This document shows, one piece after another, positions 3,560 to 29,441 of a stretch of DNA of 35,597 nucleotides (its first letter is position 1; every line of letters starts with the position of its first letter). The stretch lies in IMG/VR virus record IMGVR_UViG_3300028454_001154; one strand, given 5' to 3'. The notes below the pieces were generated by a model. That model was not told where the DNA came from, ran no database searches, and saw only the letters and a list, made by a program, of their open reading frames with translations. The position numbers were made by a program, and so were the translations under genes. The DNA comes from an uncultured virus (IMG/VR IMGVR_UViG_3300028454_001154) (taxonomy: Duplodnaviria; Heunggongvirae; Uroviricota; Caudoviricetes).

Positions 3560-3946
3560 ATGAGATACGCAATCTGGAACAAGCAAGATCCTATTATCAC
3601 ACCTATCGGAGAAGTGTTGACACCTGAACAATGGATTCAGAGATATCCTGTTGCAGGATTGCCCAGCATTACCGTTGTTTGCGCCGCAGGGGAGATCAAT
3701 GGCGCATTCTTCGGAACACTTGGGCAAATGAAGCACAACTACGAGGAAATGGGTGTTGACTTCTCTCAGTGCGAAACAGACATGGATGTTCTTGAAGTCA
3801 TTGATGCCTATGAAAAGAGCGCAAACTCCGCCGATGCGAAGAGTCTTGAACTTCGCCAGACAGAAGCTCTTGAAACACTTGCCGCAAATCAAGGCGGCTC
3901 TGAGAATCAGGCTGTAATCAATGCTCTTCTTGGGGAGGATGAGTAA
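3560..3946 (+). CDS. Hypothetical tail-associated protein
   Basis: RBS ggagg; coupled to neighbours. Confidence 0.65.
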   Translation: MRYAIWNKQDPIITPIGEVLTPEQWIQRYPVAGLPSITVVCAAGEINGAFFGTLGQMKHNYEEMGVDFSQCETDMDVLEVIDAYEKSANSADAKSLELRQTEALETLAANQGGSENQAVINALLGEDE

Positions 3947-3948
3947 AA

Positions 3949-4371
3949 ATGGATGATAAGATCATGATGGCTAAGCAGCTCGGCCGAGCTCTCGAACTCT
4001 GGGCTGCAACTTTTACTGACGAGAGCACCATGCTTGAGGTTGCTGGTGTTTACCCCAAGTGGAAGACTGACTGCCAGTATAAGAATGGGGACATTGTACG
4101 CTATGAGACTGATGAGAACGGCGAGTTTATGCTTTGGCGCGTTCTTCAGGATCATAAGTCTCAAAGCAATTGGACACCTGATACTGCCGTTTCCCTCTAT
4201 AAGCGTATTGGCATCACTGACGATGGCATCAATATTTGGACGCAACCTCTTGGTGCCTCCGATGCTTATGAAAAGGGCGATATCGTTTCACACAAGGATA
4301 AGCTTTGGGCGTCCACCTGCGACGGGAATGTCTGGGAGCCCGGCGTATATGGCTGGGAACTCAAAGACTGA
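3949..4371 (+). CDS. Carbohydrate-binding module (CBM5/12-like) protein
   Basis: 'YP.W.....Y..GD.VRY', 'LQDH.SQ.NWTPD.A.SLY', 'WTQP.GA.DAY.KGD.VSH....W.S..D.NVWEPGVYGW'. Confidence 0.75.
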   Translation: MDDKIMMAKQLGRALELWAATFTDESTMLEVAGVYPKWKTDCQYKNGDIVRYETDENGEFMLWRVLQDHKSQSNWTPDTAVSLYKRIGITDDGINIWTQPLGASDAYEKGDIVSHKDKLWASTCDGNVWEPGVYGWELKD

Positions 4372-8911: not shown

Positions 8912-10141
8912 ATGAGTTTTGATCCTGTATCCTACGTGATCGGAAAGAATGGCGCATCTTCTGGCGGCGGTGGGTCGAGCGTCCCGTCGAAGGACGTCAA
9001 TTTTATCGACTACGACGGCACGATCACCAACAGCTACACGGCGGCGGAGTTTGCTGCGCTGACGGCTATGCCTGACAACCCATCCCATGATGGTCTGACC
9101 TCGCAGGGTTGGAACTGGAGCCTGTCTGACGCACAGGCCTATGTTGCAAAATATGGCGAGCTTACTATCGGGCAGATGTATATTACCGATGACGGCAAGA
9201 CGCGCATCTACATCCATCTGGAGGAGGGGCGGCTCGCACCGTATCTCGGTATTGGGGTAAATGGCACAGCGGTGATTGATTGGGGCGATGGGTCTGAAAC
9301 GAATACCGTGACCGGGACAAGCGTCACCACCATCATTAACACGCAGCACACATACGCGGCGGCAGGGGACTACGTTATCATCATCGACGTGACGGGGAGC
9401 ATGACCCTGTCTGGGCACTCCAAATGGGGTTCGCAGCTTTTGTGGAATCAAGGCTCATCGGAAACCGAAAACGGCGTTTACCAAAATGCCGTGCAGCGGG
9501 TGGAAATCGGCAGTAATATAACTATCGGGAGTTTTGCGTTCAGATACTGCCACGGCCTTTCAAGCATTACGATTCCAGATAGTGTGACAACTATCGGGAG
9601 TAGTGCGTTCAGCTCCTGCTACAGCCTTTCGAGCGTTACTATTCCGGACGGTGTGACAACTATCGAGATTGGTGTGTTCAATAGCTGCTCCAGTTTGACG
9701 AGTATTACAATTCCAGATAGTGTGAAAACTATCGAGAATAGTGTGTTCAGCGGCTGCTACATCCTTTCGAGCGTTATTATTCCAGATAGTGTGACAACTA
9801 TCGGGAGTAATGCGTTCAATAACTGCCACCGCTTGACGAGTATTATAATTCCGGACAGTGTGACAACTATCGAGAGTGGTGCGTTCAGCTTCTGCCACAA
9901 CCTTTCGAGCGTTACTATTCCAGACAGTGTGACAACTATCGGGAGTAATGCGTTCAGTACCTGCCACGGTTTAGGCTTCATTCGCTTTGAGTCGACCATC
10001 CCACCGACGGTAGCAAATAGCAACGCCTTCCTTAATCTCACCACCGACTGTATTATTTACGTCCCAGCGGGGACGCTGAGTGACTACACCAGCGCGACTA
10101 ACTACCCGTCCAGTAGCACTTACACCTATGTGGAGTATTAA
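8912..10141 (+). CDS. BspA-type leucine-rich repeat (LRR_5/TpLRR) protein with N-terminal PKD-like domain
   Basis: Seven 23-aa repeats 'TTIGS.AF..C..LSS.TIPDSV'; 'IDWGDG' PKD-like motif; typical C-cap 'IIYVPAG....Y..ATN'. Confidence 0.9.
   Translation: MSFDPVSYVIGKNGASSGGGGSSVPSKDVNFIDYDGTITNSYTAAEFAALTAMPDNPSHDGLTSQGWNWSLSDAQAYVAKYGELTIGQMYITDDGKTRIYIHLEEGRLAPYLGIGVNGTAVIDWGDGSETNTVTGTSVTTIINTQHTYAAAGDYVIIIDVTGSMTLSGHSKWGSQLLWNQGSSETENGVYQNAVQRVEIGSNITIGSFAFRYCHGLSSITIPDSVTTIGSSAFSSCYSLSSVTIPDGVTTIEIGVFNSCSSLTSITIPDSVKTIENSVFSGCYILSSVIIPDSVTTIGSNAFNNCHRLTSIIIPDSVTTIESGAFSFCHNLSSVTIPDSVTTIGSNAFSTCHGLGFIRFESTIPPTVANSNAFLNLTTDCIIYVPAGTLSDYTSATNYPSSSTYTYVEY
9521..9975 (+). repeat. About 6.6 x 69-bp tandem repeat encoding the LRRs
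   Basis: Units start actatcgRg at 9521, 9590, 9659, 9728, 9797, 9866, 9935. Confidence 0.95.
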
Positions 10142-15649: not shown

Positions 15650-16272
15650 GCATAGAAAAACTGAAAATCATGTTGGACCCGCATGCTTTTTTGCCTATGC
15701 GGGCCCATGCTGCAGATGCCGGATTAGATTTGTTCGCGCCATATAAAGTCACAATCCAGCCGGGAGAGAGGGAAACCATTGATACAGGCGTCCATCTTCG
15801 GATACCGGATGGATATGTCGGCCTGCTGACATCCAAGAGCGGCCTTATGAAGTATTACGGAATTACATGCAGAGGCACTATAGATGCCGGGTACACTGGT
15901 TCGATACAGCCCGTCTTGTTCAACCACTCGAAGCATGTGATTCAGCTTAAACGCGGGGACAAGATAACTCAGCTTGTCATCATGCCTATCGAGACTCCTG
16001 ATCTTGAAATCGTCGATCAACTTGATGAAACTGAGCGTGGAGCGAGCGGTTTTGGAAGCACTGGATACTCCCTTGTGACCGAAAAAGAACCTTCCTTAGG
16101 CAACCTTACCATTTGTCACGGTGACATAATACGTGACTGTCACAAACGGAAATCAACATTACAATATGTAAATAAAATATTAAGGCAAAACCTGCCAAAA
16201 ATATCATCAATAAAGACCTTTGTTTTTCGCTGTTTTCCTTTGATTTTCTCTGTTTTTCTCATGTCACTGTGA
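15646..16272 (+). CDS. dut: Trimeric dUTPase (homology ends ~16065; anomalous C-terminal extension)
   Basis: Motifs 'DAGLDL', 'SKSGL', 'GTIDAGYTG', 'ITQL', 'RG.SGFGSTG'. Confidence 0.93.
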   Translation: MSIEKLKIMLDPHAFLPMRAHAADAGLDLFAPYKVTIQPGERETIDTGVHLRIPDGYVGLLTSKSGLMKYYGITCRGTIDAGYTGSIQPVLFNHSKHVIQLKRGDKITQLVIMPIETPDLEIVDQLDETERGASGFGSTGYSLVTEKEPSLGNLTICHGDIIRDCHKRKSTLQYVNKILRQNLPKISSIKTFVFRCFPLIFSVFLMSL

Positions 16273-16440
16273 CAGTAACGTTATGTGTAACGTAACGCGT
16301 AACGTCTACAGTAACCGTGACAATAACCGTTACTGTCACGTTTGAGCGGAACTAATATATATTATATATAATATATAATATTTTATATTGGTTAATTAGA
16401 AAGAAGAAAAGAAAAAGAAAAGAAGAAAGAGTGGAGTCAC
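16115..16440. repeat. Cluster of GTNAC pentamers/palindromes followed by AT-rich and A/G-rich tracts (candidate origin or terminus)
   Basis: gtcacggtgac, gtgactgtcac, gtcactgtgac, gtaacgtaacgcgtaac, gttactgtcac; then taatatatattatatataat... and aaagaagaaaagaaaaag. Confidence 0.6.
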
Positions 16441-16795
16441 GGCATAAAGACCACAATGATCCCTACAGTCAAAACTCAGCCAGAAGTGAACATCAGGTCA
16501 TCGTATGGACCATGAGCTCTCAAGCCATCTCAAAGGGCAAATACAAGAAATAACAGGAGCCTGTTCAAACATCCACTCATAAAGCCTCAGGCTATCAGTT
16601 CCAAAGCTTGATTATGGCCCGTTCTACCGGATGGCAGCACAGTACACGTCCTGAATAGGGCAAAAATCAAAATAAAGCAACGGGAAGGGAGGAATTATGG
16701 TCCGATAAACAAACTTTCACCCCAGAGAGAAAAAGGCCCGTACAGGTGATCTACGAAGTAATCCAGCAACCCTCCCAAGGAAAGGAAGAAGAAAG

Positions 16796-17083
16796 ATGAA
16801 AGTGAACATCAACGAACTCAGAAAGGATTCGCTCCAGCTTGTGGCATTGGCTCGCATGTATCAAGAAACGTTTTTAGATCGTGTAGAGCTGCTGGAGACT
16901 GACGATCCGAATGAATTGTTCGACCGCCGAATGGCGCTTGAAGCATACTATATGCTGTACGACCTCAGCGATTCCATCGCGAAGGACATTTTGGATCTTG
17001 CTGATGAACTGGAGGCCTATGATCAGAAGTTGAAAATGCTGAATGATCAGTTGGCCCAGCTGAGGAATGCTTACGGGGAATAA
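16796..17083 (+). CDS. Hypothetical coiled-coil protein
   Basis: ORF with purine-rich RBS. Confidence 0.55.
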   Translation: MKVNINELRKDSLQLVALARMYQETFLDRVELLETDDPNELFDRRMALEAYYMLYDLSDSIAKDILDLADELEAYDQKLKMLNDQLAQLRNAYGE

Positions 17084-19701: not shown

Positions 19702-20083
19702 CCTCACCGAACAGGACGTTATTGATACGGGCGAAAATCTTTTGTGGACGGTTCGTTTTGAAACACAGTCGAACGTCAATCAGTCCGGAATGGAGAAGTA
19801 TGTCTCCTTTTACAAAGAATCTCCTGCGGGAGAAGATATCGAAGTATGTGTTTTCTATGAAGACATCGAAGATATCCCTTCGGCTGTTCACGAATACTAC
19901 ATAGACTTTGATCCTGAGGAACATGTCCATATGTGGCTCGAAGCCAAGAGGAACGGGATCGCAAATGTGCCGTATATTACAGAGCTTGTCGAGGATTCAA
20001 TTGCCATCGAGAGAATGATCTTGAAATTGTACCTCGCTCTGCAGGATTGCTACGAAAGGAAGTGCCATGATGGTGAAGTTTGA
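19691..20083 (+). CDS. Hypothetical phage protein
   Basis: RBS aaagga; 'FDPEEH..MW.EAK.NG...VP...ELVED..AI'. Confidence 0.6.
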   Translation: MTINLTEQDVIDTGENLLWTVRFETQSNVNQSGMEKYVSFYKESPAGEDIEVCVFYEDIEDIPSAVHEYYIDFDPEEHVHMWLEAKRNGIANVPYITELVEDSIAIERMILKLYLALQDCYERKCHDGEV

Positions 20084-20732
20084 TGTTTTCCAGCTCGATG
20101 TTTGGGGAAATGAGAAAGACGGGTATGAAATCAACGACAGTATCTGTCTTGGCAGTGTCCAAGTTGAAGGCACTCTCGCCGATATGACTGAGTCTGCTGT
20201 TCTCAAAGCCGTCTGTGGTTTCAGAACCAAAGATGTTATCGGTAGGGAGATATCCGTTCTCGACACAACTGATCGACGCCGTGTGTATGCGGAAGATCTG
20301 TTTGAGTCCGGGAGCTATTGGGAAATCGGCACCAAGAAGGGTCACAGGCCGTTTTTAGGTCTCTGGATAAGGTGCGAAGAAACGGAAAGAGCTCCTTTGA
20401 AGCTTGCAGCTATCAGGGAAGCCCTCATGCAGGGAAGGAGCCTCGACAGCATTCTTAGCTTCGGCCCCGGTCAGGATTGCACCATTTTCAAAGCGAAGGA
20501 GTTCGTTCCCACGGATGATATCATCTACATTCCGGACGTTGCACTCAATCACATTCCTCTTGATGAAGATATCAGCAAGGACGAAGATGCAATTCAATAC
20601 GTTATTGATATGTGCTATACCGGGTTGGATTTTGTCCATATTTGTGATGGTGACGAGAAATTGGCAAGAACGTTGTTTGATTACTGTGATTGGCAGCACC
20701 CGACGTCTGCTTATCCAGAGCTGTTCGAATAG
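20067..20732 (+). CDS. Hypothetical two-domain protein
   Basis: N-terminal 'LDVWGNE.DGYEIND' and C-terminal 'A..LF..CDWQHP'. Confidence 0.6.
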   Translation: MMVKFDVFQLDVWGNEKDGYEINDSICLGSVQVEGTLADMTESAVLKAVCGFRTKDVIGREISVLDTTDRRRVYAEDLFESGSYWEIGTKKGHRPFLGLWIRCEETERAPLKLAAIREALMQGRSLDSILSFGPGQDCTIFKAKEFVPTDDIIYIPDVALNHIPLDEDISKDEDAIQYVIDMCYTGLDFVHICDGDEKLARTLFDYCDWQHPTSAYPELFE

Positions 20733-20749
20733 TGTAAGGAGGACCTCTA

Positions 20750-20986
20750 ATGAACTTTGATCCGAATGAACTTCACTACGAGTATAACACCAAAGGCTAT
20801 ATGTTGTTTTACAAAGGCAAAGCTATTGGTGGGGCTGGTATTGACCGACACGCAAAAGGTTGTCGCTCCAATCTGACACTATTCAGAGATATGGCCGAGC
20901 AAGACAAGAATGCAATTCTCGCGGGGAGAGGCCAAAACCGATATCTCTATGAGATGTCGAAAATCGACGAACAAAAAACAGATTGA
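20750..20986 (+). CDS. Hypothetical protein
   Basis: RBS aaggagg. Confidence 0.6.
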   Translation: MNFDPNELHYEYNTKGYMLFYKGKAIGGAGIDRHAKGCRSNLTLFRDMAEQDKNAILAGRGQNRYLYEMSKIDEQKTD

Positions 20987-21039
20987 CATAGCCCAGCCAT
21001 GTTATACGATATAGCTATCGATAAACTACCAAATGGTAG
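20971..21039 (+). promoter_or_regulatory. Family promoter plus 14-bp palindrome
   Basis: acaaaaaacaga TTGACA-16-TACGAT; CTACCAAATGGTAG at 21026-21039. Confidence 0.75.
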
Positions 21040-21054
21040 AAAGGAAGGTTCCCG

Positions 21055-21957
21055 ATGATTAAGCTAAAGGAGCAGAAAGCAAGCCTCAATCTTTATGATG
21101 ACGACGTCATCAAATGGGAAGAAGACGGCAAGAAATGCGCGATCCGCGTGGCTTCCGATGATTGCCCGGACAGTCCGAGAGAAGGCTATGATTACAACCA
21201 GAACATCATGGCCTGCTTCCATCCGAGATACAATCTTGGAGACCGCGATCTGGGACAGTATGACATGAAAAATCCTGAGGACTTCTGGCGCGATCTTGTC
21301 AGGTCGCATGTTCCGTCTGATGAATTGATCGACCGGGCTTTCGCAGGAGAACTCCCCAACATTCAGATTCGCAAACTGGACGATGAACTGTTCGACCTTC
21401 TTTGCAGAGAAGACTATAACGACGAATGGTTCACACAGGAACGAAATGTCGAATCTTCCACTTTGTATGTGAGTCTTGTGGATATTCTAACCGTTGATGA
21501 ATGCCAGACGATCATGGAGCCGCATGCAGAATGGCTCCCGCTCTGGCTGTACGATCATTCCGGAATCTCGATGTCCTGTGGTACTCGTACATATCCTTAC
21601 AATGACAGATGGGACAGCGGACAGATTGGCTGGATTATCACACTCAAGGAATCGGTGCCGGAAAGCAAGCGGCAGAACGACGATGAAACATGGCGGAAGA
21701 AAGCTGTTGAGTCCATGGCTCTTGACGTGGAGCTTTATGACCTTTACCTCAGAGGCGATTGCTACGGTCTCGTTTACTATGAATATGAGGACGGCGAGTG
21801 GATCGAAAAGGATTCCTGCTTTGGCTTTTACGGTTCTGACATTTATCGGAATGGAATGCTCGAATATGTGGGAACGGATCTGAAAAAAGCTCTTGAGGAT
21901 GACATGGTCGAACGCACACACGCCAAACGTCATTATACCGTCACCTTTGATTTTTAG
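21055..21957 (+). CDS. Hypothetical phage protein ('LYDHSG...WDSGQ.G' family)
   Basis: 'LPLWLYDHSGISMS', 'WDSGQIGWI', 'DSCFGFYG'. Confidence 0.65.
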   Translation: MIKLKEQKASLNLYDDDVIKWEEDGKKCAIRVASDDCPDSPREGYDYNQNIMACFHPRYNLGDRDLGQYDMKNPEDFWRDLVRSHVPSDELIDRAFAGELPNIQIRKLDDELFDLLCREDYNDEWFTQERNVESSTLYVSLVDILTVDECQTIMEPHAEWLPLWLYDHSGISMSCGTRTYPYNDRWDSGQIGWIITLKESVPESKRQNDDETWRKKAVESMALDVELYDLYLRGDCYGLVYYEYEDGEWIEKDSCFGFYGSDIYRNGMLEYVGTDLKKALEDDMVERTHAKRHYTVTFDF

Positions 21958-21963
21958 GAGGGA

Positions 21964-22611
21964 ATGAAAATGGAAGAAAAGACTCTGAAAGGCTGGAGCC
22001 AGTTTTGCGATTTCTCCGGGAAAGGATCTTGGACAGATTATTGTCTGCCCGGAGAGCGAGTTTCGGAGGATGTAGTGGATTACTTCAGAAATGTGATGCC
22101 GCCCATTTTCACGGCCTCGCGTTATCTTCAGGTCGGCGAGCCTTACGATCACCGGACGGATTATCTTTCCGGCAAAGTAAAGCCTATTTACATGACATTC
22201 CAGCGTTATGAAGGAGGACCTTGGATTTACGAAGGTCTGTGTTTCAAGAGAGAAGACACGGATATCAGTCGGATGATCGATTACGGAGATGTCAAGACCT
22301 ACCTCAAAGAGATGAAGCTGCTTGAGACTCGACATAAAGTTAGGCCGAGAATTGTTTGTAAAGACGGATTCACGGTGTCTGTTCAGGCCAGTGCGTTTCA
22401 TTATTGCACTCCGCGTGATGATCTGGCAGACGGGAATTACACTAATGTTGAAGTGGGCTACCCGAGCCAGCCTGAATCGATGCTTGAGCAGTACGCCGAA
22501 AATCCAGACGACCCTTGCAACACAGTATACGGCGATGTGCCTATTGAAATCGTGGACGCTGTTATTCAAAAGCATGGGGGCTTTTTTGAAAGTCGTCCGG
22601 TAAGCATTTAG
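21964..22611 (+). CDS. Hypothetical two-domain protein
   Basis: 'Q.GEPYDH' domain plus 'CKDGF.VSVQAS.FHYC.PR...EVGYPS' domain. Confidence 0.65.
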   Translation: MKMEEKTLKGWSQFCDFSGKGSWTDYCLPGERVSEDVVDYFRNVMPPIFTASRYLQVGEPYDHRTDYLSGKVKPIYMTFQRYEGGPWIYEGLCFKREDTDISRMIDYGDVKTYLKEMKLLETRHKVRPRIVCKDGFTVSVQASAFHYCTPRDDLADGNYTNVEVGYPSQPESMLEQYAENPDDPCNTVYGDVPIEIVDAVIQKHGGFFESRPVSI

Positions 22612-22618
22612 AGCGACA

Positions 22619-22707
22619 TGTAACTGTTTATCATATTGCCTTAGTCCCTTCAAATGGTACGATTTAGTTGTAAAACAACAATATCATTTGGTTCTGCCAA
22701 ATGGACG
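22619..22707 (+). promoter_or_regulatory. Family promoter plus degenerate palindrome
   Basis: tgtaac...TTGCCT-16-TACGAT; CTGCCAAATGGACG at 22694. Confidence 0.6.
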
Positions 22708-22727
22708 CCGATGAAAGGAGCCAAAAA

Positions 22728-23297
22728 ATGAAAGTGTGGATTTTGCAGAAAAGGCACCCCGGATATGCCTTGGTCGATGATTCGCTTGAAATCTACGACT
22801 ACGACTCCGGAGAAATCGTAGGTGTGTTCAATAGTGAATACCATGCTATGGAACGGCGCGATGATCTGCAGCATGAAGCAGACCTCGAAAAGCAGCTCTA
22901 TGATTGCGATGAAACCGAGTATTTCATCACCGAATGGAATGTTGAAGAGGAGTTCAACACGGAGCTGCATTATCTGTATCGCGATGCTTCCAACTATAGG
23001 TGGAACTATAAGGCCGTAGTCCGTGGAAGGGTGACAGACGCACAGAAAGCAGCCATTTTCCAGAAGCTCCAGAGTGACGGAGATATTCACTACTTCCTGC
23101 CTGACGCTGTTGGCCTGCCGTGCGATTATGCTGCTGGCTGCGAATATGACACTGAGCTTGACCATCCATATTGTGAGATTAGGAAGGACGATATCAGCCT
23201 CACCAAGAATCCTCCAACAGTCAATATTGATGCAGATGGTCTGTTTGAATTGTTTATGATGATGCCCGCATTTGATGTGGAGAGATTCATCCGATAA
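22728..23297 (+). CDS. Hypothetical acidic protein
   Basis: RBS aaggag before ATG 22728; 'YLYRDASNY' motif. Confidence 0.6.
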   Translation: MKVWILQKRHPGYALVDDSLEIYDYDSGEIVGVFNSEYHAMERRDDLQHEADLEKQLYDCDETEYFITEWNVEEEFNTELHYLYRDASNYRWNYKAVVRGRVTDAQKAAIFQKLQSDGDIHYFLPDAVGLPCDYAAGCEYDTELDHPYCEIRKDDISLTKNPPTVNIDADGLFELFMMMPAFDVERFIR

Positions 23298-23332
23298 CAA
23301 GCATCCAGAAGCACCAAAGGAGGGCTGATACC

Positions 23333-23445
23333 ATGATGGACATAAAAGAATTGAAAGTGACTGTCGGCGAGGTCTGTGAAGGCTATTTCAACGACGCAGA
23401 GGAAGGCGTTGTCGGCTAACAAGAAGCCGGACATACATACACCCA
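23333..23445 (+). pseudogene. Truncated N-terminus resembling DUF262 (GmrSD-like)/HNH protein
   Basis: RBS aaggaggg; MMDIKELKVTVGEVCEGYFNDAEEGVVG* then frameshifted NKKPDIH, similar to the recalled 'TV..L.EGY.D..E.GV.GY..KLDIRP' start. Confidence 0.5.
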
Positions 23446-23490
23446 TTGGTTGTTCGGCTATTGTCTGGGAGGCAGACAGGCTGGAGACAT

Positions 23491-23584
23491 TGTAACGACA
23501 TATCAGATAGCCATAGTCCTCCAACAGGGTACAATATAGTTGTAGAAAACAAACACATTATGTCCCGGTTCTACCGAACGGTAG
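23491..23584 (+). promoter_or_regulatory. Family promoter plus 14-bp palindrome
   Basis: tgtaac...TAGCCA-16-TACAAT; CTACCGAACGGTAG at 23571-23584. Confidence 0.7.
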
Positions 23585-23600
23585 AAATCCGGAGAAAGGA

Positions 23601-24002
23601 ATGACGACAATGAATGACGACAAGAAAATCCTCAGGGTGGTTAATGTATCGATCACAGCCAACCTTACGAGGGAAGATGTAGACGATATCATGTCGGGGG
23701 CGCTTGACGGTGGAATCACCTACTGGGCAGACCGAGTTGAGGTTGTCGGAGACTACATGGCTCAGTATGCTTCGGAGCAGATTTCCAGAGGAGGGGAGCT
23801 GCTGATTCACGATGTCGAAGCCGAGCAGAGCTATTACTTTACTTTGGATATGTTTATCAAGGGTTTCAAGTTGTGGCTGCAACATGGAAACGATATTCAC
23901 AGAGCTGTTTCCGATGGGAAGGTCGATACCTGTAATATCGACGCGGGAGATTGCGATGCAATCATCCAGTATGCATTGTTCGGCGAAATCATTTACGCAT
24001 AA
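23601..24002 (+). CDS. Hypothetical phage protein
   Basis: 'AL.GGI.YW' and 'IDA..CD.IIQYALFGE..Y'. Confidence 0.65.
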   Translation: MTTMNDDKKILRVVNVSITANLTREDVDDIMSGALDGGITYWADRVEVVGDYMAQYASEQISRGGELLIHDVEAEQSYYFTLDMFIKGFKLWLQHGNDIHRAVSDGKVDTCNIDAGDCDAIIQYALFGEIIYA

Positions 24003-24014
24003 GGAGGATGAATC

Positions 24015-24590
24015 ATGGGGACCAGAAATCTTACCGCCGTGTACAGTGACGGCCAGTACAAGATCGCCCAGTACGGACAGTGGGATGGATACCCGAGTGG
24101 TCAGGGAATCACAGTGCTTCGGTTCATGCATAAGATCATGGACAATGGCTTGATCGATGATTTCCGGAAGGTTATTCGCAAAACGAAGTTCTTCACTGAA
24201 CGGGAGATCGAGAGAATTGACGAGAGAATCCACAACAGGAAGCTGAAGAACTGGCAGGATATTTACCCTGAACTCAGTCGAGATACTGGCGCGGAGATTC
24301 TCGATCTGGTTTACAGCAGCCGAGCAAGCAAAAAGCTGCATAACAGTATCGAGTTTGCTGCAGACAGCGTTTTCTGCGAATGGGCATGGGTTATCGACCT
24401 CGACAGAATGACCTTTGAAGGTTATAAGGGCTTCAATAAGGAAGAGCTTACTCCGGATGATCGCTTTTATTTCCTGCGCGATGAAGAAACTGATGAAGAA
24501 TACCACGGTGTCAAGATGGTTGCATCTTGGGATTTGAACAGCCTTCCCAATGATGAAGACTTCCTTGCGGCGTTCAAGGAGGAGGAGTGA
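24015..24590 (+). CDS. Hypothetical phage protein ('MGTR...Y.QWDGYP' family)
   Basis: RBS aaggagg; 'QYGQWDGYPSGQG', 'CEWAWVIDLD'. Confidence 0.65.
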   Translation: MGTRNLTAVYSDGQYKIAQYGQWDGYPSGQGITVLRFMHKIMDNGLIDDFRKVIRKTKFFTEREIERIDERIHNRKLKNWQDIYPELSRDTGAEILDLVYSSRASKKLHNSIEFAADSVFCEWAWVIDLDRMTFEGYKGFNKEELTPDDRFYFLRDEETDEEYHGVKMVASWDLNSLPNDEDFLAAFKEEE

Positions 24591-24967
24591 TCATGAGCTA
24601 CTACAGCAATTTCACGCTGAATGTCTATGATTGGCCTGAAGGCTCGAAAAATGTCGAATATGGGCGATTGGTCACTGACGAATATCTCAAGATCGCTGTG
24701 GATAATGCAATCCAAGCGCTTGACGTGTTTGAAGAAGGAAACATGCGCAGTGGTTATTACGCCTATGCTCCGTGGAGTACAGTAGACGAAGACATGTGCG
24801 AACTCTCCAGAAAGTTTCCCACTGTTCTCTTTGAACTCAACGGAAATGGCGATGACTGGGATGATATCTGGGTAACGTATTATCTTGACGGCAAAATGCA
24901 GTTTTGCCCTGCCGCCATCGTATATCCTGATTTTGACCCCGATGGATTTAAGGAGTATCAGCCATGA
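24587..24967 (+). CDS. Hypothetical protein
   Basis: 'DM..LS.KFP.VLF.L.G.G.D..D.W..YY..GK'. Confidence 0.6.
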   Translation: MIMSYYSNFTLNVYDWPEGSKNVEYGRLVTDEYLKIAVDNAIQALDVFEEGNMRSGYYAYAPWSTVDEDMCELSRKFPTVLFELNGNGDDWDDIWVTYYLDGKMQFCPAAIVYPDFDPDGFKEYQP

Positions 24968-25353
24968 CGAGCAGTCAACAAGCAATCAGGGACAAGGTTC
25001 TGGAAGATCTTTGGGCTGAGTTCGAAGACGTCCCGATGAATCCGGAAACAGAGTGTATAGAGGCGCCGTTTAGGGATTTCCCGGCTGGAACAAATCGGTG
25101 GGATATTCTCGAATGGTTCGACAAGCATTACTCGAAAGGAGTCTATGCATTGATGTACGATGCAGACGCTGCAAAGGAAGATTTATTGCAGTATTATGCC
25201 AACCTTGGGACATGGTGCTGCGACTGCGAATCTGATGACTGCGCGTTTAATAGGTATGGTGAATGCCGTTTTTCACTCGTGAATGAGCGAGCCCCAGAAA
25301 TCACAGATAATGCGGGCTGCCTCGATTATATTGTCAGGAGGATTGAATCTTGA
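24964..25353 (+). CDS. Hypothetical protein with Cys-rich C-terminus
   Basis: 'LE.LW..F.DVPM.PETEC.E.PF..FP.GT.R..I..WFD..YSKGV'. Confidence 0.6.
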   Translation: MTSSQQAIRDKVLEDLWAEFEDVPMNPETECIEAPFRDFPAGTNRWDILEWFDKHYSKGVYALMYDADAAKEDLLQYYANLGTWCCDCESDDCAFNRYGECRFSLVNERAPEITDNAGCLDYIVRRIES

Positions 25354-25601
25354 AGAAATACACTGTCTATGGGGAAGCAAAAGTCCGTGTCTCCTGCACC
25401 GTCTTCGCAAGAGATGATGAAGAGGTATCTTTTGAAAAGCTCAAAAAGAGAGCCAACAGGAAGTTCGGCGGCGTTTCGTTCTTGGACGGCAATGGGCATA
25501 TGCGATCAGTTGGCGTCAATGGAGAAGGGGAGACCATTTCCCCGCGCAGGGAGCCCATCCACTGGTATGACTATGATGAGGAGGTTGAACAGCTATGGTG
25601 A
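25350..25601 (+). CDS. Hypothetical protein
   Basis: RBS aggagg; TTG start. Confidence 0.55.
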   Translation: MKKYTVYGEAKVRVSCTVFARDDEEVSFEKLKKRANRKFGGVSFLDGNGHMRSVGVNGEGETISPRREPIHWYDYDEEVEQLW

Positions 25602-25861
25602 ACGGTGATCTCTTACATGACATCGATCTCGAATTGGAAGCATTCACTGCCGATCTCGTTCCGGCCATTCTGGGGGATGACGGAGGGTTTTTCATAACCT
25701 ACTCATACACTCCGAACAGTCTGTGTCTTGAGTGGGAGTGGGAACGGCTGGACAGCAGGAAACGGAGAAAGTCTTTTGAAACGGACGAAGAAGAAAGCTC
25801 TGAAATGCTGAAGAATCGCATTAAAGCATATTTGTTCGATTTATGTGTGTTGCTCTCGTGA
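25595..25861 (+). CDS. Hypothetical protein
   Basis: RBS gaggaggt. Confidence 0.55.
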   Translation: MVNGDLLHDIDLELEAFTADLVPAILGDDGGFFITYSYTPNSLCLEWEWERLDSRKRRKSFETDEEESSEMLKNRIKAYLFDLCVLLS

Positions 25862-25884
25862 ATCTTTAAGGAGGCTTGTAGATT

Positions 25885-26394
25885 ATGAGTTATGACATCA
25901 AGCGCGGCGACATCTTTTACATTGATCGATTTGGCGTTCAGACCGGGAACGAACAGATTCCCGGCAGACCGGGTATCGTTGTCTCAAATGATCTGAACAA
26001 TAAGTACAGCGGCACCGTCGAAGTCGTGTACCTCACCACCCAGCCCAAGGCGGAACTGGCTACTCATGTAACCATTCGAAGCTCCCAGAAGGTAAGCACT
26101 GCGTTATGTGAGCAGGTAACAACAGTCAGTGTAGAACGGCTTGGAGATTGGGTCGCTACATGTACGGCAGACGAAATGTTCGAAATCGACATCGCATTGT
26201 TGAAGTCGTTGGATATCAATATCCCAGAACTGAAAAAGCAGCTGAATGCAAAACTGGAAATCGCAGCACAGGAGTCCGCAAAACAGCCTCCTGTTACTGC
26301 AGCAGAAGAGAACATTGCGAGATACAAGATGGAAGCCGAAATGTATAAAAACCTCTATCAGGAACTTCTGAACAGGTTGCTTCCGGCAAAATAG
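25885..26394 (+). CDS. PemK/MazF-family endoribonuclease-like protein with C-terminal coiled coil
   Basis: 'IKRGDIFY......G.EQ..GRP.IVVSND..N..S..VEVVYLTT', 'ALCEQ.TTV...RL'. Confidence 0.85.
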   Translation: MSYDIKRGDIFYIDRFGVQTGNEQIPGRPGIVVSNDLNNKYSGTVEVVYLTTQPKAELATHVTIRSSQKVSTALCEQVTTVSVERLGDWVATCTADEMFEIDIALLKSLDINIPELKKQLNAKLEIAAQESAKQPPVTAAEENIARYKMEAEMYKNLYQELLNRLLPAK

Positions 26395-26397
26395 CGC

Positions 26398-26430
26398 GAT
26401 CCCTCCGGTCAAAACCGGAGGGATATTTTT
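26398..26430 (+). terminator. Rho-independent terminator
   Basis: atccctccggt-caaa-accggagggat followed by attttt. Confidence 0.85.
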
Positions 26431-26503
26431 GTAAGCAATTATAGCTTGACATTGCCTCCTTGGGTGTTATAGTTTAGTCAACGGGAAAACTACCGTTTGG
26501 TAG
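26430..26503 (+). promoter_or_regulatory. Strong promoter plus 14-bp palindrome driving the OB-fold/RAMP/array operon
   Basis: TTGACA(26446)-16-TATAGT, TG extended -10; CTACCGTTTGGTAG at 26490-26503. Confidence 0.8.
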
Positions 26504-26549
26504 ATGACAAGGCTCCAAAATGGAGTGCTACTGAAAGGAGAGTTACATA

Positions 26550-27809
26550 ATGAAGTACCCGATTTATGCCAGCAAGATTGAAGAAATCGAAAAGAGCCTG
26601 AACAAGATTCAGAAAAAAGCCGAGAAGTACAATGTCCCGTTCAAGTGGGATGTCAGCGAACCCTATGCCAAGACAATCCGCGTATATGGATATGACAACA
26701 CTGTCCTGCACACTGTCGATGTCGAGGCTGTTGACCTTACCATTGAGGCTGACCAGCTCGTTAAGATGAATGGCTGGAAGCTGAGAGCGAAGATCGAGCA
26801 CGGAGCTGAAGGCAATATCGTTACCCCGATTGGTAATGGGGAGGTCCTGAAAGAGTGGTACACCGCTCCACCAAAATGTGACCACTGCGGCGTCAACCGA
26901 TTTAGGTCCGTGACGTTCATCTGCGAGAATGAGTCTGGCGAGCTGAGACAAGTTGGCAGAAGCTGTCTCAAGGATTACACCGGAATCGATCCTTCTCTGG
27001 CAGCACTTTGGGCGTCTGTGACAGACTTGTTCCCTAACGGGATGGATTGTTCTGTTGAGGCATGGGAAGAGCACAAGCCTGCCCAGATGTTCAATGTCAG
27101 GAAGGTGCTTGCTCTGGCCTGTGAATCCATTGAACGATTCGGATATCGCAAGAGCAGCGAAAACAGCTCCACCAAGGAAAGGGTTATTGCCGAGATCCAC
27201 GCGGAGCCGTCCGAGGAAGCATACAAAAGCGCAGACTCCATTATCAACTGGATGGCGGAACGCAAGGAAAAGACCAAGATGGAAGATGAGTTTTACCATG
27301 AGCTCTATGAGAAGTATGCCGCCGAAGACTCCTTGTACGATGAAGACTATTGGAGAGAGTACCGGGTTGTTTCACAGGCGTGGGATGCTGTTTCTGATCT
27401 TGAAAGGAATTGCATTCCGCTGATCGATTCTGGTTACTGCAAGATGATGCACATGGGAAGGCTGGTTTATCTCCCCATCGCCCATAAGGTTTTCCTTGAG
27501 AGAAAGGAACGCGAGAAAGCCAAGGCCGAGGCAAGAGAAAAAGCGTTGGCAACCTCCAAACACATCGGGGAAGTTGGGCAGAGAATCACTGTGACTGCTG
27601 AGAAGGCAGAGCTTGTAACCTCGTGGGAGAACTTTTACGGAACGACGTGGCTGTATCGGTTCACCGATCCGGAAGGCAATATTTTCATCTGGTATGCATC
27701 GAGGCCGATCGAATACACGAACGGCATGAAGATTCGCGGCACCATCAAGGACCATTCGGAATATGACGGAATCAAGCAGACGGTCATGACGAGATGCGCC
27801 GTTGCTTAA
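26550..27809 (+). CDS. Protein with CxxC...C zinc site and C-terminal OB-fold-like domain
   Basis: 'CDHCG.NR.R.......QVG.SCLKDY.G'; C-terminal 'HIG.VG.R', 'TIK.H.EY.G.KQT..TR'. Confidence 0.6.
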   Translation: MKYPIYASKIEEIEKSLNKIQKKAEKYNVPFKWDVSEPYAKTIRVYGYDNTVLHTVDVEAVDLTIEADQLVKMNGWKLRAKIEHGAEGNIVTPIGNGEVLKEWYTAPPKCDHCGVNRFRSVTFICENESGELRQVGRSCLKDYTGIDPSLAALWASVTDLFPNGMDCSVEAWEEHKPAQMFNVRKVLALACESIERFGYRKSSENSSTKERVIAEIHAEPSEEAYKSADSIINWMAERKEKTKMEDEFYHELYEKYAAEDSLYDEDYWREYRVVSQAWDAVSDLERNCIPLIDSGYCKMMHMGRLVYLPIAHKVFLERKEREKAKAEAREKALATSKHIGEVGQRITVTAEKAELVTSWENFYGTTWLYRFTDPEGNIFIWYASRPIEYTNGMKIRGTIKDHSEYDGIKQTVMTRCAVA

Positions 27810-27850
27810 TCAAACAAGAATAAACAAATGACAATAAGGAGGACAATTCA

Positions 27851-28576
27851 ATGCCCGCAAAGAAGACTGAGACCATTGTAATCAAGCCCTTGAAGATGGA
27901 AAAGGTCAAGATCCGCGTTGTCGGAGATTCGCCTCTTATCATGCATGCTTGGTCTGCTAAGGCCAAGCGAGACATTCTCAGCAAGGAGATCGGCATTACA
28001 AAGATGACGAAAAGTATCCGGAATCCTTTTGAAGATTTTGCAACAAGCATGTACTGGCTTGATCAGATGCCGGAAGAACCGGACGAAAAGAGTGTAACGG
28101 AAGCTCTCTCTGCAGGGGTGAGATTCGGATTTCCACTTACTGCGTTTAAGCAGGCAGCTATTTCTTCGGCTTATCGGCTGGGCTGGGCAAAAGACAAGAT
28201 GTCCCTTCGCGGAGCGTTCTTCATCGACCCGGATCAGGATGGCTATTACGGAGGAGACCTAAAGATCGACTTAGATCGCAAGGAGATCGAGATTGTCCCA
28301 AATGTCTATCGTTATGAGCCGATGGTCGAAATCCACTCGGATATTCCGCTGATCAGAGAAGATTGTGTCCGTGTTGGAATGGGCACCGATTTGAGATATC
28401 GAGGCGAATTTCGGAATTGGTATGCTGATTTGACCGTTAGCTTCAATGCAAACGGGCAGTACACCTTGGATCAGATTATCAACTTGATCAATGCTGGTGG
28501 CACTGTTTGTGGCGTTGGAGAATGGCGTCCCGAGCGTGACGGCCAATATGGTATGTTCCATGTAGACGCAAAGTAG
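27851..28576 (+). CDS. Stand-alone RAMP/Cas7-like RNA-binding protein (Vipr-like)
   Basis: N-terminal strand 'IRVVGDSPLIMH', helix 'P..AFKQA..S.A', 'LRYRGEF..W', C-terminal Gly-rich loop 'AG..CGVGEWRPE.DG.YG.F.V'; no other cas genes nearby. Confidence 0.7.
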   Translation: MPAKKTETIVIKPLKMEKVKIRVVGDSPLIMHAWSAKAKRDILSKEIGITKMTKSIRNPFEDFATSMYWLDQMPEEPDEKSVTEALSAGVRFGFPLTAFKQAAISSAYRLGWAKDKMSLRGAFFIDPDQDGYYGGDLKIDLDRKEIEIVPNVYRYEPMVEIHSDIPLIREDCVRVGMGTDLRYRGEFRNWYADLTVSFNANGQYTLDQIINLINAGGTVCGVGEWRPERDGQYGMFHVDAK

Positions 28577-28581
28577 CACCG

Positions 28582-28840
28582 AGGCAGGCGAGTTAAGTTT
28601 AGGACTGGCGTGTTCCGGTATGGAAGGGCGCGTTCTTGTTGGGCAAGGCTCATTCAGGCAGGCAAGGTGGGTCAAGGCAAGGCGATGCTTGGAAGGAATG
28701 GCTTGGTCTGGTTAGACGAGGCAGGCATGGTTTGTTCAGATGTGGTCCGTTGTGGCGATGCAAGGTCAGGCGGGGAGTGGAAAGGCGCTTTTAAGGCAGG
28801 CAAGGCGAAGTTTGTTATGGTCAGGCGAGGAGCGGTTGGC
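28582..28840 (+). ncRNA. 5-nt-periodic GGY/NN guide array (VIPR-like RNA), four units
   Basis: AGGCAGGC separators at 28582, 28656, 28719, 28794; between them GGY-like triplets alternate with variable dinucleotides. Confidence 0.8.
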
Positions 28841-28866
28841 CAATACTCAGCAAACCTCAAGGCAAC

Positions 28867-28892
28867 GGCTACGGGTGGTTTCACCCGTAGCC
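28867..28892 (+). terminator. Perfect 11-bp hairpin closing the array (3' end or processing signal; no U-tract)
   Basis: ggctacgggtg-gttt-cacccgtagcc. Confidence 0.6.
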
Positions 28893-28916
28893 AATAATTC
28901 AAAAGGAGTATAGAAA

Positions 28917-29441
28917 ATGATCTACAAATGGAAAATGCCCGGCTTAATGCCTGTTAAGGCGCAGACGGCAGGAGAGGAGTTGGATCGAATCTATCAGAAG
29001 AACGGTCGGCTTGATGCCGCTGATGTTGTTGATGAGAGCAGACCGATAACTGCACCCCTTCACGATTGCTTTGAATGGAATGATGCTATTGCTGCGGAAG
29101 AATACCGGAAAAGCCAGGCAAGCCACATCATCCGTTCGATCACTGTTGTTCCTGAGACAGTCAACGGCAAACAGGACGCGAGAATCACACGAGCATTCGT
29201 CAATGTCCAGCAGACTTTCCGTCCGATCGATGTCGTCATGAATGACGAAAACATGCGCAGAGAGCTCATGGAAAAGGCTCTCAGAGACCTCGATGCTTTT
29301 CAAAAGAAGTATGCTTCGCTGGAAGCTCTTCAGCCCGTCTTCGACGCGACAAGAACAGTTGCAGCCAAATACAGAAGAACTCAGGTTCATCAGGAGCAGA
29401 AGTCCGTTTCGCTCTCTATGGATGACGAGTTTGACGTGTAA
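28917..29441 (+). CDS. Conserved phage protein adjacent to the RAMP-like gene/array (putative accessory)
   Basis: 'AQ.AGEEL.RI....G.L....VV..SRP..APLH.CFEWND..AAE.YR..QA..IIRSI'; RBS aaggag. Confidence 0.7.
   Translation: MIYKWKMPGLMPVKAQTAGEELDRIYQKNGRLDAADVVDESRPITAPLHDCFEWNDAIAAEEYRKSQASHIIRSITVVPETVNGKQDARITRAFVNVQQTFRPIDVVMNDENMRRELMEKALRDLDAFQKKYASLEALQPVFDATRTVAAKYRRTQVHQEQKSVSLSMDDEFDV

Follow-up and report, generated by a model that had tools for sequence, protein, structure and literature searches.

A phage-borne VIPR module with a putative guide against the DNA polymerase gene of competing phages

We analyzed a stretch of 35,597 nucleotides from an uncultured virus of the Caudoviricetes (IMG/VR record IMGVR_UViG_3300028454_001154), which we will call the window. 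Positions 27851-29441 are very probably a phage-borne VIPR (Viral Interference Programmable Repeat) module in which one unit of the array, unit 3, is a guide against the family A DNA polymerase gene (polA) of competing phages. The evidence for this comes from the anatomy of the locus, the homology and predicted fold of the Vipr protein, the in-phase complementarity of unit 3 to polA, control patterns, and the guides of related arrays, which converge on the same region.

VIPR was described in 2026 (bioRxiv, April 2026). In the published work, vrRNAs have 9-16 YNNGG repeats with one Vipr protomer per repeat (PMC13142463), the NN bases pair with double-stranded DNA and every third base is skipped (PMC13142463; 10.64898/2026.04.26.720927), and skips that fall on codon wobble positions block escape by synonymous mutation (PMC13142463; 10.64898/2026.10.15.759431). 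Vipr itself is a minimal RAMP made up of an RRM core, a thumb, and a loop rich in glycine. PMC13142463 also reports that the NN positions are hypervariable. Because the gapped code, the advantage of skipping wobble bases, and the role in conflict between phages have already been published, the module in the window is not a new kind of system. An earlier reading of this DNA, made from its letters alone (the sequence-only reading), had arrived at the wobble-skipping mechanism and its resistance to synonymous escape, and this is the mechanism described for VIPR in PMC13142463 and 10.64898/2026.10.15.759431.

Results

Unit 3 of the array matches polA in codon phase

The array (28583-28838, + strand) is a series of pentamers, each with a GGY-like triplet and a pair of variable bases (NN), and is divided by GGCAGGC delimiters at 28583, 28657, 28720, and 28795. 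At each of the first three delimiters, and also at GGAAGGA (28691-28697), the register moves by -1. We parsed the array into five units, all on the + strand: unit 1 (28587-28656, 14 pairs), unit 2a (28661-28690, 6 pairs), unit 2b (28695-28719, 5 pairs), unit 3 (28724-28788, 13 pairs), and unit 4 (28799-28838, 8 pairs). In the array region, the autocorrelation of G is +0.29 to +0.38 at lags of 5, 10, 15, and 20. All eight of the strongest 120-nt segments for 5-nt periodicity of G in the 35.6-kb window lie within 28561-28731 (power 2.7-3.5), while the 5-nt periodicity of C, which corresponds to the other strand, has a maximum power of 1.3 in the window.

Unit 3 parses as GGC-AT GGT-TT GTT-CA GAT-GT GGT-CC GTT-GT GGC-GA, followed by TGC-AA GGT-CA GGC-GG GGA-GT GGA-AA GGC-GC. 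The pentamer before it, AGG-CA (28719-28723), is in the same register. The 13 pairs of unit 3 are exactly those that the sequence-only reading had listed. If one base is skipped after each pair, then the guide with its preceding CA pentamer (28719-28788, + strand) reads as (Q)MFHVPVEKHGVN(A).

We scanned viral and genome contigs for pairs 1-12 of unit 3 with one N between pairs (24 specified bases; only the 1-nt skip was considered). There were at least 95 exact matches in IMG/VR viral contigs and at least 120 in the contigs of a collection with one genome per species. For all 215 of the matches listed (95 viral and 120 from genomes), the skipped base is codon position 3, as the sequence-only reading had proposed, and for 214 of them the frame is free of stop codons within 30 nt on either side. 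At the 95 listed viral sites, the peptide is MF[H/Q]VPVEKHGVN, with MFHVPVEKHGVN at 94 sites and MFQVPVEKHGVN at 1, and it is followed by G at 78 sites, S at 11, and A at 2.

The targets encode family A DNA polymerases. The commonest context of the viral sites is IYCASASQMFHVPVEKHGVNGHLRQKGKIAELALGYGG, and each of the five target ORFs that we tested matches Pfam PF00476 (DNA_pol_A, E values of 1e-22 to 1e-25). The full-length target ORFs have about 645-690 amino acids; some others are cut by the ends of the loci. So, the polymerase motif that the sequence-only reading had given is real. That reading had also placed the motif just before motif B. When aligned to Taq Pol I, the site corresponds to WMFGVPRE..AVDP and lies directly before RRAAKTINFGVLYG, which is motif B, the O-helix.

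The sites are diverse at the nucleotide level. The listed sites include 67 distinct 35-mers among the 95 viral sites and 91 among the 120 genome sites (158 if the two sets are counted separately). For instance, the skipped base of the fourth codon (GTx) is T in 11 cases, C in 37, G in 12, and A in 35. Since the skipped bases are wobble positions, a single guide covers many synonymous variants. In addition, the CA of AGG-CA matches a Gln codon before the Met codon in 50 of the 95 viral and 82 of the 120 genome sites listed, so the best targets match 13 consecutive pairs (CA plus pairs 1-12), or 38 bp. The 13th pair of unit 3 (GC) rarely matches (2 of 95 viral and 8 of 120 genome sites listed).

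The match depends on the order of the pairs

With the pairs of unit 3 in reversed order, there were no matches in the viral contigs. Similarly, among 401 genomes from the order of genome G002, the pattern of unit 3 was present with up to 2 mismatches in 23, and the backwards pattern was present in none. We also compared unit 3 to Acutalibacteraceae phage NatCom_991, using the first 50 kb of the 56.8-kb record. Unit 3 scored 27 of 28 guide bases, and none of 200 shuffled pair orders reached this score. Judging from these comparisons, the match between unit 3 and polA is not due to chance.

Pairs 1-11 and pairs 5-14 of unit 1 and a pattern of 9 pairs from unit 4 (three patterns, with 18-22 specified bases) each had no exact match in the viral contigs. 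The scores of units 1, 2a, 2b, 2a+2b, and 4 against the first 50 kb of NatCom_991 were no better than those of shuffled pair orders.

The sequence-only reading had raised the question of whether this phage's own polymerase lacks the site. The window contains no site for unit 3 at up to 3 mismatches (the best gapped score is 19/28), and tblastn did not find polA in the window (best E value of 3.4).

The gene upstream of the array encodes a Vipr homolog

The module is on the + strand and consists of a gene for a 241-amino-acid Cas7-like (RAMP) protein (vipr, 27851-28576), the array, and a conserved accessory gene (28917-29441), in that order. The 340 nt between the stop codon of vipr and the start of the accessory gene are G-rich on the + strand only.

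Using phmmer, we found that the 241-amino-acid protein is similar to the Vipr protein of Escherichia phage SUSP1 (PDB 36pp_D, E = 4e-7), which is the one solved structure that it matched by sequence. A profile built from 26 homologs matched the same chain with E = 2.2e-10. Of the residues of SUSP1 Vipr that contact RNA, R138 (thumb) aligns in the profile alignment with R184, and D177-W178-R179 (G-loop) align with E224-W225-R226; R184, E224, W225, and R226 are invariant among the 26 homologs. Two other RNA-contact residues, H17 and K33 of SUSP1 Vipr, lie outside the aligned stretch, and the window's protein has an invariant H32.

The predicted structure is consistent with this assignment. The AlphaFold2 model of the window's Vipr has a pLDDT of 86.8 and a pTM of 0.83, and its best Foldseek matches in PDB are Cas7-family subunits from type III and type VII complexes. 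Every one of the 28 top matches listed (E values of 5e-5 to 3.4e-3) comes from a CRISPR effector complex (type III Csm/Cmr or type VII), with probabilities of about 1.0 and TM-scores of 0.32-0.44. No Vipr chain was among the matches from this PDB library (up to 2026-04-08). From these similarities, we presume that the product of vipr is the vrRNA-binding subunit of a filament.

We noticed that the 3' end of vipr (28553-28564) encodes an invariant ...GQYGMFHV and that pairs 1-4 of unit 3 (AT TT CA GT) recur in its codons ATG TTC CAT GTA. As only four pairs are involved, far fewer than in a target, this likeness is probably a coincidence of sequence.

The accessory gene (vap-like; + strand) encodes 174 amino acids and belongs to phrog_15946, and its product had no sequence match in Pfam, NCBIfam, or PDB. 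We compared the window to 47 related viral loci (L001-L047). A homolog of this gene is downstream of vipr and on the same strand in 43 of the 47. The other neighbors of vipr (the 419-amino-acid ORF, a MazF-like gene, and ORFs of 269, 329, and 194 amino acids) were found in none of the 47. In nearly all of the 47 loci, an array with 5-nt periodicity of G directly follows the vipr homolog or is one gene further on. Three loci also have a second 5-nt periodic array upstream of vipr (L003, 2838-2945; L043, 2870-2979; L045, 2865-2979), which resembles the upstream-plus-downstream layout reported for SUSP1.

The window contains a sigma-70-like promoter upstream of vipr (26446-26473, + strand; TTGACA-16-TATAGT with TG, 11/12, which is a match to the consensus only) and a terminator-like hairpin just 5' of it (26400-26423). 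By its sequence, this promoter is the likely start of a transcript that includes the 419-amino-acid ORF, vipr, and the array. The 419-amino-acid ORF (26550-27809; phrog_2319, function unknown) lies between the promoter and vipr. None of the 47 related VIPR loci has this ORF, so the conserved module does not include it. A gene for a MazF/PemK-like endoribonuclease toxin (25885-26394; Pfam PemK_toxin, E = 4e-20; phrog_1936) is located about 150 bp before the operon's promoter. Downstream of the array, there is a perfect 11-bp hairpin without a T-run (GGCTACGGGTG-GTTT-CACCCGTAGCC, 28867-28892, + strand). This hairpin was not among the terminator calls of our promoter/terminator scan, and it may be the 3' end or a stabiliser of the RNA.

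We also searched for other known elements. The whole window had no Rfam matches at gathering thresholds and no tRNAs. We found no match to positions 27851-29441 among GenBank phages by blastn. The nearest virus record (G001) had no match to positions 20000-29441, no Vipr, and no PF00476, but as this record is a 65%-complete fragment, the absence of Vipr and PF00476 from it is uninformative. Elsewhere in the window, within an ORF at 8912-10141 (phrog_35892), a 69-nt unit (23 amino acids) is repeated 6.5 times in tandem at 9520-9967; we take this unit to resemble a BspA-type leucine-rich repeat. There are also several short tandem repeats (16217-16430) in an AT-rich non-coding gap (16272-16796) between a dUTPase-like gene and the next module; this gap may be a regulatory or origin region.

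Guides from related arrays converge on polA and its neighbor

We decoded the arrays of the related loci and used them as seeds against every locus that we had collected (1820 seven-pair queries, with 942 matches). When the order of the pairs was reversed, there were 13 matches, so we treated seven-pair matches that could not be extended as noise.

Two more guides to these target phages came out of this comparison. First, the array of L011/L012 (4062-4116) contains a guide, GA AT TA TG GC TC GC TC AA AT TT, that decodes to DIYCASASKMF and has three codons in common with the window's polA site. All 11 of its pairs match in L062 and L092, and its seven-pair seeds match up to 71 polA loci. Second, a guide in L001 (about 3943-3992) matches 17-19 of 20 bases in 12 target loci. 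It corresponds to the antisense strand of an ORF of about 142-197 amino acids (motif ..IPIAPHLLFP) that lies immediately downstream of polA; in all 12 loci, codon position 3 is the one skipped. So, distinct guides from different arrays fall on the same stretch of about 22 codons of polA and on the adjoining gene.

A seven-pair match from L026 inside polA (4 loci) did not extend. Seven-pair matches of the arrays of L016-L022 to the window near 22665, and those involving L025, L029, L035, L041, and L044, also did not extend past seven pairs, and we consider these to be noise.

The predicted targets are a subfamily of polymerases, mainly from Bacillota

The sequence-only reading had attributed the motif to prophages of Bacillota, and the hosts of the targets are mainly Bacillota: Lachnospiraceae, Oscillospiraceae, Streptococcus, Veillonella, and Selenomonadaceae. 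More precisely, according to the titles of the records, most of the genome matches listed are from Lachnospiraceae, Oscillospiraceae or Ruminococcus, and other Clostridia. The rest of those listed are from several Streptococcus (mitis, oralis, and infantis), Veillonella or Selenomonadaceae, and a few others.

When we compared one of the target polymerases to GenBank phages (tblastn), we found 1341 records, and we scored the guide over 28 bases against seven of these. Besides NatCom_991, Streptococcus phage Javan100 matched 22 of 28 bases (MFGVPVEKHGVN). The polA genes of SPO2 (Bacillus) and of phages of Paenibacillus, Staphylococcus, Phocaeicola, and Salmonella scored 16-17, which is at background: shuffled sequences had a mean score of 15.8 and a maximum of 17 of 28. 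As the distant polA genes are at background, the guide covers one subfamily of polymerases, not all of them.

Vipr homologs were present in 2 of the 401 genomes from the order of G002 and in none of five target-bearing genomes. One genome from this order, G276, has both a Vipr homolog (contig C66, 3665-4268) and a polA site with 2 mismatches (contig C169, 19412-19446). Its Vipr homolog aligns in three pieces with 44-64% identity and is possibly broken.

Discussion

How the module might act

By analogy with the SUSP1 and P. fulva systems, Vipr would form a filament on each vrRNA, with one protomer gripping each GGY-like triplet and displaying the two bases after it. These NN pairs would pair with double-stranded DNA while every third base is skipped. 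Unit 3 would be transcribed, processed, and loaded into Vipr, and would then present (CA) and 12 pairs that correspond to codon positions 1-2 of (Q)MFHVPVEKHGVN. The predicted target encodes part of the fingers domain, and this family A DNA polymerase is common among phages and prophages of Bacillota. Upon binding the DNA, the likely effect would be a protein-RNA roadblock inside polA that silences it. This would keep a competing phage, either resident or co-infecting, from expressing its replication module. With no polA in the window, the phage that carries the VIPR module would be spared and would benefit in the competition.

Is the guide still active?

We considered whether unit 3 might be a relic, that is, a former guide against polA whose scaffold has decayed and which is no longer loaded or active. 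Only 7 of its 13 triplets are GGY, and the other 6 (46%) are GTT (twice), GGA (twice), TGC, and GAT. For SUSP1, replacements of GGY by AGY, GAY, GGA, or AAY were tested, and perturbing GGY abolished silencing (PMC13142463, with the legend of fig. S12). The GGY fraction of the window's whole array is 0.52, which is among the lowest (relatives have 0.37-0.92). Also, TTTTAA comes after unit 3 and makes the distance to the next delimiter 75 nt instead of the usual 5n+4, and units 2a and 2b are shorter than the published range of 9-16 repeats.

However, none of the 24 guide bases of pairs 1-12 has been lost relative to a target that is constrained at codon positions 1-2. Given the reported hypervariability of NN positions in VIPR (PMC13142463), a decaying unit should have lost such matches. 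Except for GAT, the non-GGY triplets of unit 3 are common in the in-register units of its clade: of 691 in-register triplets, 69.5% are GGY, 11% GTT, 6% GGA, 4% GTC, and 1.6% TGC. GTY as a whole accounts for about 15%, and TGT is regular too. The polA guide of L011/L012 carries the same kinds of variants (GTT, TGC, TGT, and GGA). Finally, vipr is intact and has all of the conserved residues. We therefore think that a relic is unlikely, and that unit 3 is probably a working guide against polA.

DNA or RNA as the target

If the guide acted on the mRNA of polA instead of on the DNA, then it should be complementary to it. The structures in 10.64898/2026.04.26.720927 show that Vipr-vrRNA can pair with a single-stranded RNA target, but in the published work such targets gave mostly incomplete filaments, and the triplex needs DNA. 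In the window, unit 3 has the sense of the coding strand of polA at all 215 of the sites listed, and is identical rather than complementary to the mRNA. It can thus pair with the template strand of the DNA, but not with the mRNA. Moreover, the guides of this clade match both strands, which, together with the mRNA sense of unit 3, fits the targeting of DNA and not of RNA. We consider RNA targeting to be very improbable.

A role other than as a guide

Least probable of the three, and hardly credible in our view, is that the array is a structural or protein-binding element, in RNA or DNA, without any role as a guide, and that its match to polA is a coincidence. The 5-nt periodicity of GG would suit such an element, as GGN3 repeats could conceivably form two-tier quadruplexes, and in the window the array is surrounded by genes of unknown function and is next to structural genes. 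But a gapped match of 24 bases recurs at least 215 times in one gene and in one phase, while the reversed order never occurs in the viral contigs; further arrays of the family have guides that match this gene module; and the adjoining protein is a homolog of Vipr. More specific versions (a TRAP-like RNA, a run of G-quadruplexes, or a terminase [pac] site) were dropped given the match of the protein to Vipr in PDB and of the gapped pattern to polA.

Comparison to known systems

The module is most easily compared to VIPR type II, as represented by SUSP1 and a prophage of Pseudomonas fulva (PMC13142463; 10.64898/2026.04.26.720927; 10.64898/2026.10.15.759431). Shared features include a small Cas7-like Vipr with a probable thumb Arg; a similar G-loop (GVGDWRP in SUSP1 Vipr and GVGEWRP in the window's Vipr); pentamers of GGY and NN, with NN and one skipped wobble base in the target; a phage-borne locus with an adjacent accessory gene, which in the window is a putative vap; and targets in competing mobile elements. 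On the other hand, only about the last 70 residues are similar in sequence to SUSP1 Vipr, and the window's protein has 241 amino acids as opposed to 202. In VIPR type II, each tract is followed by an invariant structured 3' tail (a pseudoknot), whereas the units in the window abut at GGCAGGC with a shift of -1, and the single hairpin (28867-28892) comes after the array as a whole. As the units lack the 3' tail, we did not assign the locus to VIPR type II. The triplet code is also looser in the window's clade than in published VIPR type II. The numbers of pentamers in units 3 and 1 (13 and 14) are within the published range, while units 2a, 2b, and 4 (6, 5, and 8) are below it; in relatives, in-register units range from 6 to 16 pairs and most often have 9. 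Last, the target in the window is a conserved replication enzyme of many phages with unrelated hosts, while the targets of VIPR type II are a satellite recombinase or a lysogeny regulator.

The layout of the array fits the "staggered" type described in the legend of fig. S18 (supplement of PMC13142463), where neighboring vrRNAs share 1 nt. The GGC-A-GGC junctions fit a 1-nt overlap, as does the spacing of successive GGCAGGC delimiters in relatives, which is 5n+4 in 69 of 90 cases.

In the published texts that we searched, we found no polymerase among the targets: the word "polymerase" is absent from the main text and the supplement PDF of PMC13142463, and "DNA polymerase" and "polA" are absent from 10.64898/2026.10.15.759431.

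There are similarities to two other kinds of systems. In the Cas7 proteins of class 1 CRISPR systems (type III Csm3 and type VII), the thumb of the RAMP likewise interrupts the pairing of guide and target periodically, but there 5 of every 6 bases are paired, while in VIPR it is 2 of 5 guide bases and 2 of 3 target bases. Unlike those systems, the window has no CRISPR repeats or spacers and no cas genes: Tandem Repeats Finder did not report a CRISPR-type array (direct repeats of about 24-48 nt with spacers) at the locus, and PHROG and Pfam scans of the window did not identify cas1/cas2 or other cas families. The attenuation sites of TRAP consist of (G/U)AG triplets spaced by 2-3 nt. Like them, the array has about 11-13 G-rich triplets at a spacing of about 5 nt on one strand. 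However, the variable dinucleotides of the array match a foreign gene, and the protein encoded next to it is a RAMP rather than a ring like TRAP.

Implications

The results amount to an independent and purely computational confirmation of the published 1-nt-skip code of VIPR, in a distant clade from gut and rumen-type Bacillota phages and with a different layout of the array. They also add a new class of natural target, in the form of a motif that is conserved in a replication enzyme. Because at least 215 sequences share codon positions 1-2 of the target while position 3 is free, they illustrate how much breadth is gained by skipping the wobble base. The guide of unit 3, together with polA of NatCom_991, whose host is cultured, or of a Streptococcus Javan prophage, would be a testable pair outside of E. 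coli.

A broader possibility, which we put forward tentatively and with more doubt than belief, is that the guides of this clade are directed at codons that do not vary in the catalytic core of a replication enzyme, and so achieve family-wide interference instead of strain-specific immunity. If this is true, then one guide of 12-13 pairs would work against polA-bearing phages across families and even classes of bacteria, with a reach that includes Lachnospiraceae, Oscillospiraceae, Streptococcus, and Veillonella. The clustering of the guides points to a recurrent hot spot, which might reflect either strong selection or an unknown means of acquiring guides from the replication modules of invaders. 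Overall, our analysis suggests that the replication modules of polA-bearing phages are a recurrent battleground for this clade of VIPR.
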